From NCBI RefSeq assembly GCF_016903815.1, contig NZ_CP069973.1: a DNA stretch of 64,000 nucleotides. One strand, given 5' to 3'. The notes below the pieces were generated by a model, which saw only the letters and a program-made list of their open reading frames with translations, did no database searches and was not told the DNA's origin. Every line of letters starts with the position of its first letter. The first letter of the stretch is position 1. The position numbers were made by a program, and so were the translations under genes. Below are positions 9,080-15,898 of this stretch, one piece after another. Origin of the DNA: Escherichia coli (GTDB taxonomy: Bacteria > Pseudomonadota > Gammaproteobacteria > Enterobacterales > Enterobacteriaceae).

Positions 9080-11278
9080 ATGGACAAGGAATTACCGTGG
9101 CTGGCGGATAACGCCCAAGTGGAACTGAAATATAAAAAAGGCAAAACGCCGCTCAGCCATCGCAGTTGGCCGGGCGAACCGGTGCCTGTTATCACTGAAA
9201 GCCTCATCCAGACACTGGGTGATGAATTGCTACAAAAAGCTGAGAAGAAAAAAAACATTGTCTGGCGTTATGAAAATTTTTCACTGGAGTGGCAGTCGGC
9301 CATTACGCAGGCCATCAACTTGATTGGCGAACACAAACCCTCAGTTCCGGCCCGGACAATGGCGGCGCTAGCCTGTATCGCGCAAAATGATAGCCAACAG
9401 TTGCTCGACGAAATCGTCCAACAAGAGGGACTGGAATATGCGACTGAGGTGGTGATTGCACGCCAGTTTATTACACGATGTTATGAAAGTGATCCTCTGC
9501 TAGTGACATTGCAGTATCAGAACGAGGATTATGGCTATGGTTATCGATCAGAAACCTATAACGAATTCGATCTCCGACTGCGTAAGCATCTCTCTCTGGC
9601 AGAGGAAAGCAGCTGGCAGCGTTGCGCCGACAAACTCATTGCCGCACTGCCAGGAATAACCAAAGTTCGCCGCCCTTTTATTGCTCTGATCCTCCCGGAA
9701 AAACCAGAAATCGCCAATGAGTTGGTAAGCCTTGAATGCCCGTGGACTCATTTTCATTCTAAGGAGTGGTTAAAAGTTGTTGCTATTGACCCCAGAGCGG
9801 TGAGAAAACTCGAACGCTACTGGAGCCAGGATATATTTAGCGATCGGGAAGCCAGCTACATGTCGCATGAAAACCACTTCGGCTACGCGGCCTGCGCTGC
9901 CCTTTTGCGCGAACAAGGACTGGCAGCCGTTCCACGCCTGGCAATGTATGCCCATAAAGAAGATTGCGGCAGTCTGCTGGTACAAATTAACCATCCGCAG
10001 GTCATCCGCACCCTGCTGTTAGTTGCTGATAAAAACAAACCCAGCCTGCAACGTGTAGCTAAATACAGTAAAAATTTCCCCCATGCGACGCTTGCCGCAC
10101 TGGCAGAACTGCTGGCGCTAAAAGAACCACCTACGCGCCCTGGTTATCCAATCATCGAAGACAAAAAGCTGCCTGCACAGCAAAAAGCACGTGATGAATA
10201 CTGGCGTACGCTGTTACAAACGCTGATGGCATCGCAGCCACAACTGGCAGAAGAGGTGATGCCGTGGTTAAGTACTCAAGCCCGGTCAGTGCTGAATAGT
10301 TATTTATCGGCACCGCCTAAAACGGTTATTGATAGCACCGATAACAGCCAAATGCCTGAAATCCTCGTTTCACCACCGTGGCGTAGTAAGAAAAAAATGA
10401 CAGTTCCACGTCTTGATTTGGCACCGTTCGAATTAACGCCGCAAGTTTACTGGCAACCAGGCGAACGAGAGAGGCTTGCCGCCACTGAGTCTGCCCGTTA
10501 TTTCAGCACGGAATCTCTTGCGGAACGCATGGAACATAAAAGTGGACGAGTTGTACTACAGGAGCTGGGTTTTGGAGATGATGTATGGCTGTTTCTGAAT
10601 TATATACTCCCCGGAAAACTGGATGCTGCACGCAATTCACTCATTGTTCAGTGGCATTACTACCAGGGGCGGGTTGAAGAGATCCTGAATGGCTGGAACT
10701 CCCCGGAAGCACAATTAGCAGAACAGGCGCTTCGCAGCGGTCACGTAGAAGTGTTAATTAACATATGGGAAAATGACAGCTACTCACGCTATCGTCGGGA
10801 AAAGAGTATCTGGAACCTGTATTTATTGGCACAGTTGCCGCGTGAGATGGCTTTGACTTTCTGGCTACGTATCAATGAGAAAAAGCATCTGTTCGCGGGT
10901 GAGGACTATTTTCTCAGTATCTTCGGATTGGATGCTCTACCAGGTCTGCTGTTGGCTTTTTCACATCGTCCAAAAGAAACATTTCCGTTAATTTTAAATT
11001 TTGGCGCAACAGAACTGGCCCTGCCCGTTGCCCGCGTCTGGCGACGTTTCGCGGCGCAGCGTGATCTGGCTCGCCAGTGGATTTTACAATGGCCGGAACA
11101 TACGGCTACTGCACTTATCCCTCTTGTCTTCACCAAATCCAGCGATAATAGCGAAGCTGCATTACTTGCCCTACGTTTACTTTACGAACAGGGACATGGT
11201 GAATTGCTGCAAACCGCGGCAAACCGCTGGCAGCGTACAGATGTATGGCCTGCCCCGGTCTGGCAAAACTGGTGCTGA
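9080..11278 (+). CDS. Third molR/yehI-family paralog, 732 aa, lacking the N-terminal WGR domain and the conserved C-terminal module
   Basis: ATG 9 bp after previous stop; aligns by eye to the middle of the 5276..9070 product (LPWLAD / LSHRSWPGEPVPV; FDLRLRKHLSLAEES...LPEKPEIA; LEYATEVVIARQ; HATLAALAELL). Ends at TGA 11276..11278. Correspondence to the K-12 names yehK/yehL/yehM not resolved. Confidence 0.7.
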   Translation: MDKELPWLADNAQVELKYKKGKTPLSHRSWPGEPVPVITESLIQTLGDELLQKAEKKKNIVWRYENFSLEWQSAITQAINLIGEHKPSVPARTMAALACIAQNDSQQLLDEIVQQEGLEYATEVVIARQFITRCYESDPLLVTLQYQNEDYGYGYRSETYNEFDLRLRKHLSLAEESSWQRCADKLIAALPGITKVRRPFIALILPEKPEIANELVSLECPWTHFHSKEWLKVVAIDPRAVRKLERYWSQDIFSDREASYMSHENHFGYAACAALLREQGLAAVPRLAMYAHKEDCGSLLVQINHPQVIRTLLLVADKNKPSLQRVAKYSKNFPHATLAALAELLALKEPPTRPGYPIIEDKKLPAQQKARDEYWRTLLQTLMASQPQLAEEVMPWLSTQARSVLNSYLSAPPKTVIDSTDNSQMPEILVSPPWRSKKKMTVPRLDLAPFELTPQVYWQPGERERLAATESARYFSTESLAERMEHKSGRVVLQELGFGDDVWLFLNYILPGKLDAARNSLIVQWHYYQGRVEEILNGWNSPEAQLAEQALRSGHVEVLINIWENDSYSRYRREKSIWNLYLLAQLPREMALTFWLRINEKKHLFAGEDYFLSIFGLDALPGLLLAFSHRPKETFPLILNFGATELALPVARVWRRFAAQRDLARQWILQWPEHTATALIPLVFTKSSDNSEAALLALRLLYEQGHGELLQTAANRWQRTDVWPAPVWQNWC

Positions 11279-11332
11279 CAGTGGGGCTTACAGCAGGCGG
11301 GAGAACAACTGCTAAAAACGGTTCTCACCCGT

Positions 11333-13901: not shown

Positions 13902-15898
13902 ATTCACTACGTCCGGAATTATTAGAACTGACACCACAAGCTTTGACGGCGTTAAGCAATGCCGGTTTTGTTAAGCGCAGCCTTAAAGAACTGGAAAATG
14001 GCAACGTCCCGGAAATCAGCCATGAGAACGGCGCTTTAATCGCCACCTTCAGTGACGGTGTCCGCACCCAGCTGGCGAACGGTCAGGCACTGAAAGAGGC
14101 TCAGTGCAGCTGCGGGGCCAGCGGCATGTGCCGCCATCGCGTGATGCTGGTTTTAAGTTATCAGCGACTTTGCGCCACCACCCAGCCTACGGAAAAAGAA
14201 GAAGAGTGGGATCCGGCAATCTGGCTGGAAGAACTGGCTACCCTGCCCGATGCCACCCGCAAACGCGCGCAGGCACTGGTCGCTAAAGGTATCACCATTG
14301 AGTTGTTCTGTACGCCGGGCGAAATTCCCTCTGCCCGCTTACCGATGAGCGATGTACGTTTTTATTCCCGCAGCAGCATTCGTTTCGCACGCTGTGATTG
14401 TATTGAAGGAACACTTTGCGAACATGTCGTACTGGCAGTACAGGCCTTTGTCCAGGCCAAAGCGCAGCAAGCGGAATTTACTCATTTAATCTGGCAGATG
14501 CGCAGCGAACACGTCACATCATCTGACGATCCGTTTGCCAACGATGAGGGCGACGCGTGTCGTCAATATGTTCAGCAATTAAGCCAGGCGTTATGGCTTG
14601 GCGGCATCAGCCAGCCGCTTATTCATTACGAGGCTGCTTTCAGCCGCGCGCAGCAAGCGGCGGAACGCTGCAACTGGCGATGGGTGAGTGAATCGCTACG
14701 GCAACTGCGCGCCAGCGTTGATGCCTTCCACGCCCGCGCCAGCCACTATCATGCCGGAGAATGCTTACGTCAGCTTGCGGCATTAAACAGTCGATTAAAT
14801 TGCGCACAAGAGATGGCGCGGCGCGACAGTGTTGGTGAAGTTCCTCCGATGCCGTGGCGCACGGTCGTTGGCGCTGGCATTGCCGGAGAAGCAAAGCTTG
14901 ATCATCTGCGGCTGGTGTCTTTAGGTATGCGTTGCTGGCAGGATATTGAGCAGTATGGTTTACGCATCTGGTTCACCGATCCCGACACCGGCAGTATTTT
15001 GCACCTTTCGCGCAGTTGGCCGCGAAGTGAACAGGAAAACTCACCGGCAGCGACGCGTCGGCTATTTAGTTTTCAGGCTGGCGCACTGGCAGGTGGGCAA
15101 ATTGTTTCACAAGCAGCAAAACGCAGTGCCGATGGCGAGCTGTTGTTAGCTACCCGCAACCGCTTGAGTAGTGTTGTGCCGCTGTCGCCAGACGCCTGGC
15201 AAATGTTGAGCGCGCCATTGCGCCAGCCGGGCATTGTGGCTTTGCGGGAATATTTACGCCAGCGTCCCCCCGCCTGCATACGGCCTCTTAATCAGGTGGA
15301 TAACTTATTTATTCTGCCAGTCGCTGAGTGTATTTCACTCGGTTGGGATAGCAGCCGCCAGACGCTGGATGCGGAGGTAATCAGCGGCGAAGGTGAAGAT
15401 AACGTGCTGACATTATCCCTACCAGCCTCTGCCTGTTCGCCCTTTGCTGTTGAACGCATGGCAGCTCTGTTACAACAAACAGAGGACCCCGTGAGTATGG
15501 TTTCTGGCTTTGTCAGTTTTGTAGAGGGGCAATTGACACTGGAACCACAGGTAATGATGACAAAGACTCGTGCCTGGGCTCTGGACGCAGAAACTACGCC
15601 TGTGGCACCGCTACCTTCTGCCAGCGTTTTGCCTGTGCCGTCTACCGCTCATCAGTTGCTGATGCGCTGCCAGGCGTTACTTATTCAACTGCTCCATAAC
15701 GGCTGGCGCTATCAGGAACAGAGTGCTATTGGTCAGGCAGAGTTGCTGGCGAATGACCTCACCGCGGTGGGTTTTTATCGGCTGGCACATGTGTTGGCAC
15801 AATTTCGTAATACAGAAAGCGAGGCACGGGTAGAAGCAATGAATAACGGTGTTTTGCTTTGCGAACAATTATTCCCCATGCTTCAGCAACAAGGATGA
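13898..15898 (+). CDS. yehQ: Protein with two SWIM-type zinc-finger motifs (CxC...CxH)
   Basis: ATGA overlap with the yehP stop; motifs CSCGASGMCRHRVMLVL and CDCIEGTLCEHVVLAV. Confidence 0.8.
   Translation: MNSLRPELLELTPQALTALSNAGFVKRSLKELENGNVPEISHENGALIATFSDGVRTQLANGQALKEAQCSCGASGMCRHRVMLVLSYQRLCATTQPTEKEEEWDPAIWLEELATLPDATRKRAQALVAKGITIELFCTPGEIPSARLPMSDVRFYSRSSIRFARCDCIEGTLCEHVVLAVQAFVQAKAQQAEFTHLIWQMRSEHVTSSDDPFANDEGDACRQYVQQLSQALWLGGISQPLIHYEAAFSRAQQAAERCNWRWVSESLRQLRASVDAFHARASHYHAGECLRQLAALNSRLNCAQEMARRDSVGEVPPMPWRTVVGAGIAGEAKLDHLRLVSLGMRCWQDIEQYGLRIWFTDPDTGSILHLSRSWPRSEQENSPAATRRLFSFQAGALAGGQIVSQAAKRSADGELLLATRNRLSSVVPLSPDAWQMLSAPLRQPGIVALREYLRQRPPACIRPLNQVDNLFILPVAECISLGWDSSRQTLDAEVISGEGEDNVLTLSLPASACSPFAVERMAALLQQTEDPVSMVSGFVSFVEGQLTLEPQVMMTKTRAWALDAETTPVAPLPSASVLPVPSTAHQLLMRCQALLIQLLHNGWRYQEQSAIGQAELLANDLTAVGFYRLAHVLAQFRNTESEARVEAMNNGVLLCEQLFPMLQQQG

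Follow-up and report, generated by a model that had tools for sequence, protein, structure and literature searches.

The characterised pairs of a MoxR ATPase and a protein with a von Willebrand factor type A (VWA) domain include CoxD-CoxE, CbbQ-CbbO and NorQ-NorD. Escherichia coli has the MoxR ATPase RavA with its own VWA partner, ViaA (PMC3893208), and YehL, one of two MoxR proteins in strain K-12 and the type member of its own subfamily among the seven into which MoxR proteins are divided (Wong et al., PMC3893208); a preliminary description of the DNA studied here had likewise classed yehL as being of the MoxR type. Here we analysed the yeh cluster in a 64,000-nucleotide stretch of the E. 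coli contig NZ_CP069973.1 (referred to as the window), in which the VWA gene yehP stands without an ATPase gene beside it. A single deletion of about 4 kb, between short repeats in yehI and yehM, took yehL, and this is very probably why the VWA gene has no ATPase neighbour.

The reference order in K-12 DH10B is metG, a frameshifted molR (a DUF4132 pseudogene), yehI (1210 amino acids, aa), yehK (105 aa), yehL (362 aa), yehM (759 aa), yehP, yehQ and yehR, where yehL is annotated as 'ATP-binding protein', yehM as DUF5682, yehP as vWA (378 aa) and yehQ as SWIM. A 7,001-bp query, compared by megablast with K-12 and many other strains, aligned in two pieces spanning 11,004 bp of the subject. Local blastn placed window positions 5275–11255 on 4775–10756 of the retrieved K-12 locus (L001), and window positions 11248–20000 on 14752–23502 of the same locus. 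The K-12 sequence absent from the window amounts to 4,003 bp by blastn (4,265 bp relative to strain 'ST167') and holds the 3′ part of yehI, yehK, all of yehL and the 5′ part of yehM. The DNA alignment puts the breakpoints at YehI codon ~725 and YehM codon ~252. At the protein level, tblastn matched residues 1–725 of K-12 YehI to window positions 9080–11254 (93.7% identity) and residues 253–759 of K-12 YehM to positions 11249–12769, and K-12 YehK and YehL had no match better than E = 0.46 across the whole 64 kb. The same held for YehL from Serratia and Variovorax, for which tblastn against the window returned nothing better than E = 0.46.

The hexamer CTGCCC is common to both K-12 breakpoints, and in strain 'ST167' (CP093919), the closest undeleted haplotype found, CCTGCCC forms a perfect 7-bp repeat. 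The junction repeat is embedded in an imperfect repeat of 14–15 bp, which reads TATGGCCTGCCCTGG in yehI and TATG-CCTGCCCCGG in yehM. Judged from its sequence, the repeat at the breakpoints is the signature of a microhomology-mediated deletion, by slippage or illegitimate recombination. Since yehM is read in the +1 frame with respect to yehI in K-12, and 4,003 equals 1 modulo 3, the resulting yehI′–yehM′ fusion is in frame. A TGG to TGA change stops it 10 codons past the junction (WQNWC*QWGL in the window vs WQNWCWQWGL in K-12). No full-length DUF5682 protein was thus found at the place between the ATPase and VWA genes; residues ~253–759 of YehM remain, with the TGA at codon 10 of the remnant.

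The preliminary description had reported a VWA gene without a P-loop ATPase partner in positions 9080–15898, on the ground that no open reading frame (ORF) of at least 60 aa contained GxxxxGK[ST]. The absence itself stands, as neither an ATPase gene nor an AAA+ profile match was found in this region, whereas the motif evidence offered for it was unsound. The string GLPRSGKT does occur there, in a 104-aa ORF with a TTG start (11001–11315). We rejected this ORF as a P-loop NTPase, for its frame is neither that of yehI′ nor that of yehM′, and it matched no NCBIfam family. The string was rejected as a real Walker A as well, since its first glycine comes from the yehI side of the junction and K-12 reads CLPRYGKT in that frame. 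Moreover, the Walker A of K-12 YehL is GEPGTAKS, which fails GxxxxGK[ST] despite the AAA_5 profile match of the protein, so that the strict motif would also call K-12 'P-loop-free' where an AAA+ gene is in fact present. Six-frame translation of the 64 kb (scan pattern [GA]x4GK[ST]) contained six strict GxxxxGK[ST] matches, only two of them within long ORFs; with chance matches this common, the presence or absence of the motif carries little weight.

Other searches agreed on the absence. The relaxed MoxR-type pattern G..G.[AG]K[ST] had no match in 9080–15898, and the best local match to YehL, at 13856–13924, was without the P-loop residues (GESSVMNS vs GEPGTAKS). Frameshifted P-loop remnants were sought by tblastn, with YehL of K-12, Serratia and Variovorax as queries, and by six-frame scans for the strict and the relaxed Walker A pattern, and we met chance matches only. 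As a caution on method, GxxxxGK[ST] misses the Walker A of MoxR/AAA_5 proteins such as GEPGTAKS and also gives chance matches, and profile or alignment tests are therefore needed. Among the explanations put forward in the preliminary description, it was the departure of this locus from the reference arrangement that proved right, and the 4,003-bp deletion relative to K-12 fully explains the absence of the ATPase.

In megablast against 5,426 complete E. coli genomes, window positions 9000–16000 were 100% identical to strain 222 (NZ_CP020516). The exact junction was found in 94 of these genomes, a count on which a 501-bp query and a 45-mer agree. The junction was 100% identical in all carriers among the matches listed, several named carriers belong to sequence type (ST) 405, and PEC011 also carries it; the deletion is clonal in its spread, and the junction could serve as a simple clone marker. 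The TGA-bearing 45-mer occurred in 95 genomes vs 94 for the junction 45-mer, that is, one genome has the stop without this junction, and a chimeric query joining the undeleted sequence to the TGA had no exact match among the complete genomes. The yehL DNA was present at a coverage of at least 80% in 5,208 of the 5,426 genomes (96%), at a median of one place per genome and in single copy in nearly all; 207 genomes had no match.

The cluster is damaged in other lineages too. In strain 'ST167' a frameshift disrupts yehL and a stop cuts yehM at codon 224, and the idea that this strain shares the stop of the window was rejected; as its stop is a different one and its yehL is frameshifted, its decay is independent. 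K-12 DH10B is itself broken, with a frameshift and an internal stop in molR (L001 4776–8571) and an internal stop in yehQ (17402–19402), both of which are intact in the window. A deletion of ~7 kb including yehM and yehL has been described in Shigella sonnei lineages 2 and 3 (PMC12795559), and the transposon TnMB1860 lies in the DUF4132 region in ST131 sublineage L1a (PMC9334617). Identity between the window and 'ST167' was 99.6% to the left of the junction (window 300–11255) and only 97.4% to its right (11243–16983). As the two flanks differ in their closest relatives, the haplotype at and around yeh is probably a mosaic or a recombinant.

With the deletion, YehI lost its C-terminal 485 residues (~726–1210, ~40% of the protein), including the DUF4132 domain at K-12 residues ~954–1138, and YehM lost residues 1–~252, its N-terminal domain. 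In K-12 YehL, residues 79–220 match Pfam AAA_5 (E = 1.9e-33), with weaker bpMoxR and AAA_3 matches; the AAA matches of YehL in NCBIfam (GvpN, MadB and McrB) were all below threshold. By sequence, its nearest solved relatives are the AAA modules of midasin (E about 1e-7).

An AlphaFold model of YehM, built from 30 homologues, had a predicted local distance difference test (pLDDT) score of 83 and a predicted template modelling (pTM) score of 0.77. The model predicts an alpha/beta domain at residues 1–240, a disordered linker at 241–252 and a helical body beyond, so that the predicted linker coincides with the deletion breakpoint. Alignment of the homologues showed invariant residues in the N-terminal domain (G8, R10, H11, E35, H51 and G199-G200-x-H202), a pattern which may fit the motif of the Tiki/TraB/ChaN superfamily; a member of the Tiki/TraB/ChaN/erythromycin-esterase fold would be expected to show residues of the GxxH...E...GxxH type together with a similar fold. 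It is plausible that this domain is a putative hydrolase-like domain. We found no mention of DUF5682 in the literature searched, and DUF4132 was mentioned only as a landmark.

Upstream of yehL, the K-12 yehK–yehL intergenic region (306 bp, 38.6% GC) contains a promoter-like site, TTGCAA-17-TATAAT, and was lost with the genes. An intergenic region bound by H-NS has been described at yehL–yehM, both genes being upregulated in hns/stpA mutants (Ueda et al., PMC3686432); we take it to be the AT-rich stretch lost here, with the yehL promoter in it. In window positions 8800–16100 we found one sigma-70-like promoter site vs 5.5 ± 2.3 expected from shuffles, and the remaining locus has no obvious promoter. 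Terminator-like hairpins were somewhat commoner in the same interval than in shuffles (13 vs 8.7 ± 2.9). In 'ST167' (positions 12795–13369 and 13370–16737 of its retrieved locus, L005) the yehK–yehL intergenic region is 575 bp long vs 306 bp in K-12. The gene zorO is listed beside yehL and yehM in the S. sonnei paper (PMC12795559), and the extra intergenic DNA of 'ST167' might be a zor/orz type I toxin-antitoxin element.

Downstream, yehP and yehQ are intact. YehP matches Pfam VWA_CoxE (E = 1.9e-71), is 99% identical to K-12 YehP, and shows a weak cobaltochelatase match in NCBIfam. Its metal ion-dependent adhesion site (MIDAS) is complete (D222-x-S224-x-S226, T281 and D307) and unchanged across four orthologues, including those of K-12, Serratia and Variovorax. 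Downstream of the VWA gene, yehQ encodes a SWIM-type protein, with a Pfam SWIM match at residues 56–88 (E = 9.7e-4) and a second, weak match at 160–183. Upstream, a protein with WGR and DUF4132 domains is represented by two intact paralogs (1466–5263 and 5276–9070, referred to as A and B); the third, yehI′, is without DUF4132.

We also compared the module with distant loci. YehM has 1,420 homologous proteins at E ≤ 1e-5, and Serratia fonticola and Variovorax share the gene order WGR-DUF4132, AAA_5, DUF5682, VWA_CoxE and a protein of 684–718 aa; the latter has a faint SWIM match in Variovorax only, where a small ORF also precedes the AAA_5 gene. The order of the module is conserved from Enterobacterales to Burkholderiales. 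K-12, Serratia and Variovorax all have an AAA_5 gene clustered with the VWA gene, and the window, which keeps a CoxE-type VWA gene with a complete MIDAS, has none. The AAA_5 gene is evidently a fixed component of the module in the three intact loci examined, which speaks against the existence in nature of a version without the ATPase.

By analogy with other MoxR-VWA pairs, YehL in the intact system would form a ring acting on the MIDAS face of YehP, and a target would be remodelled by these two jointly with YehM, YehQ and the WGR-DUF4132 proteins. As YehL, the YehM N-terminal domain and the promoter region have all been lost, the module is most likely dead, and yehP and yehQ would be orphans that owe their intactness to the youth of the clone alone. 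Several points weigh against this reading. Neither yehP nor yehQ has an inactivating mutation, and two full-length WGR-DUF4132 paralogs are present. YehP and YehQ may keep a residual function independent of the ATPase, as their preserved sequences would allow, and yehPQ may be expressed by read-through from upstream promoters. The genes of the module are functionally uncharacterised, so that we infer rather than observe its death. Beyond the 64-kb window, the only sign that there is no second YehL-like gene is the single copy number of yehL.

It is conceivable, if doubtful, that the loss was selected, the H-NS-silenced module being costly or harmful in host-associated lineages and the TGA having removed a harmful YehI–YehM hybrid. 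Independent inactivations do recur, in molR and yehQ of DH10B, in 'ST167', in S. sonnei (PMC12795559) and in ST131 L1a (PMC9334617), and the TGA allele hardly occurs outside the deletion clone (95 vs 94 genomes). However, drift in a dispensable, silenced cluster predicts recurrent decay equally, yehL is still in 96% of genomes, and the stop may have arisen before or after the deletion.

That YehP is active without an AAA+ partner, its MIDAS together with YehQ and the remaining WGR-DUF4132 proteins forming an ATPase-independent sub-complex, is very unlikely. Such a sub-complex would account for the intact yehP and yehQ, the near identity of YehP to that of K-12 (99%), its complete MIDAS and the two full-length paralogs upstream. 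Yet the identity of the junction in the carriers listed (100%) points to a clone too young for intact ORFs to signal selection, the AAA_5 gene was always present in the distant homologous loci examined, and the deletion took the promoter region and the YehM N-terminal domain as well. The alternative raised in the preliminary description, with the SWIM or WGR proteins as partners of the VWA protein, found no support, given that AAA_5 always accompanies them in the Serratia and Variovorax modules.

The ST405-type clone could be regarded as a natural experiment, in which YehP, YehQ and two WGR-DUF4132 proteins were kept and the MoxR ATPase and the putative TraB/ChaN-like domain of YehM are gone. 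That yehPQ are active in it, or else that the repeated, independent inactivation of this five-gene module, silenced by H-NS, reflects a costly conflict or defence function, is a long shot. The profiles of PADLOC-DB v2 (E ≤ 0.01) matched none of MolR, YehI′, YehM′, YehP and YehQ of the window, nor YehK, YehL and YehM of K-12. Should yehPQ prove to be expressed with a phenotype, it would mean that a VWA adaptor of the MoxR-associated kind is able to act in the absence of its ATPase. The carriers are in any case natural yehL-null strains, which could help to assign a function to the YehL-subfamily MoxR module.

The preliminary description also suggested that the partner ATPase lies elsewhere. Such a partner, whether another YehL-like gene of the genome or RavA acting across systems, is highly improbable. 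E. coli does have another MoxR ATPase, RavA, and the DNA examined is 64 kb of a genome; but RavA is paired with ViaA (PMC3893208), nearly every genome has yehL in a single copy, nothing like YehL was found in the window, and the physical deletion fully accounts for the absence. Finally, the chance that the missing 4 kb is an assembly artefact, such as a collapse between repeats, is negligible, for although the three tandem upstream paralogs are repetitive and can confuse assemblers, the identical junction appears in 94 complete genomes that many laboratories assembled independently, and the breakpoint repeat is only 7 bp long, in the non-paralogous yehI and yehM.

The ORF map of window positions 1–20000 shows the 3′ end of metG, three tandem large ORFs, ORFs ending at 12772, 13901 and 15898, and then yehR, beyond which yehS, btsR and btsS lie on the minus strand. 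In the annotation of strain 222 the order is metG, a DUF4132 protein, a WGR and DUF4132 protein, two incomplete pseudogenes, the intact yehP and yehQ, and yehR. There the RefSeq annotation (Prokaryotic Genome Annotation Pipeline, PGAP) labels yehI′ as a hypothetical protein, 'incomplete; missing C-terminus', and yehM′ as a DUF5682 family protein, 'internal stop; incomplete; missing N-terminus'. What we describe is ordinary gene decay, with remnants already flagged as pseudogenes in RefSeq, and it carries little weight as a discovery, the 'orphan' VWA gene being left over from a deletion, specific to this lineage, in a known cluster.

Table 1. Position of the genes, remnants and junction of the yeh cluster in the 64-kb window
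Feature	Position	Strand	Remarks
Paralog A, 1265-aa MolR/YehI-type protein	1466..5263	+	Intact; DUF4132 protein in strain-222 annotation
Paralog B, 1264-aa WGR + DUF4132 protein	5276..9070	+	Intact; strain-222 annotation
yehI′, truncated yehI: codons 1–~725, then 10 yehM-derived codons and TGA	9080..11278	+	
Spurious Walker-A-like string GLPRSGKT	11247..11270	+	In out-of-frame 104-aa ORF 11001–11315
Deletion junction, CCTGCCC	11249..11255	+	Overlapping blastn segments vs K-12 and vs 'ST167'
yehM′, DUF5682 gene remnant: codons ~253–759, internal stop	11249..12772	+	
TGA nonsense codon ending the yehI′–yehM′ fusion	11276..11278	+	TGG in K-12 and 'ST167'
yehP, intact 378-aa CoxE-type VWA protein	12765..13901	+	Pfam VWA_CoxE
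yehQ, intact 666-aa SWIM zinc-finger protein	13898..15898	+	Pfam SWIM; strain-222 annotation
yehR, lipoprotein gene, downstream boundary of the cluster	16023..16484	+	Strain-222 annotation

Paralog A is absent from K-12 and was found in 1,629 of the 5,426 complete genomes at 87–100% identity; against K-12 YehI it showed 31% identity over 1242 aa by tblastn. The profile region matched by its N-terminal ~75 residues is also the one matched by paralog B, which is the intact counterpart of the K-12 molR pseudogene and is collinear with L001 4776–8571. Over their first ~197 bp the two paralogs are near-identical, and the start of the single molR of K-12 matches both. This suggests that paralog A was gained or lost by recombination between the repeated 5′ ends.

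Compared with known systems, the window is closest to the yeh cluster of K-12. Both occupy the same site between metG and yehR and share yehP, yehQ, the 5′ part of yehI and the 3′ part of yehM, at ~93–97% DNA identity. Unlike K-12, the window lacks yehK, yehL, the yehK–yehL promoter region, residues ~726–1210 of YehI and 1–~252 of YehM, and it has an extra upstream paralog and intact copies of molR and yehQ, both broken in K-12. The losses in other successful clinical lineages (S. sonnei, ST131 L1a and 'ST167') are, like this one, independent inactivations of the same cluster, but they came about by a ~7-kb deletion, a transposon, and a frameshift with a nonsense mutation, respectively, vs the 4-kb microhomology deletion of the window.

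Midasin (Rea1), whose AAA_5 modules stand nearest to YehL in sequence among solved structures, unites AAA_5 rings and a MIDAS domain, activities that are split between YehL and YehP. It is found in eukaryotes, measures about 4,700–4,900 residues and acts in ribosome assembly, and the likeness is at the domain level only. With the MoxR-VWA pairs, the intact yeh locus shares the usual arrangement, in which an ATPase and an adaptor remodel a target complex. Its YehP is of the CoxE type with a MIDAS, and its AAA_5 gene lies two genes upstream, with yehM between. The window differs from such pairs in having lost the ATPase half, and the yeh module differs from them in adding DUF5682, SWIM and WGR-DUF4132 proteins.

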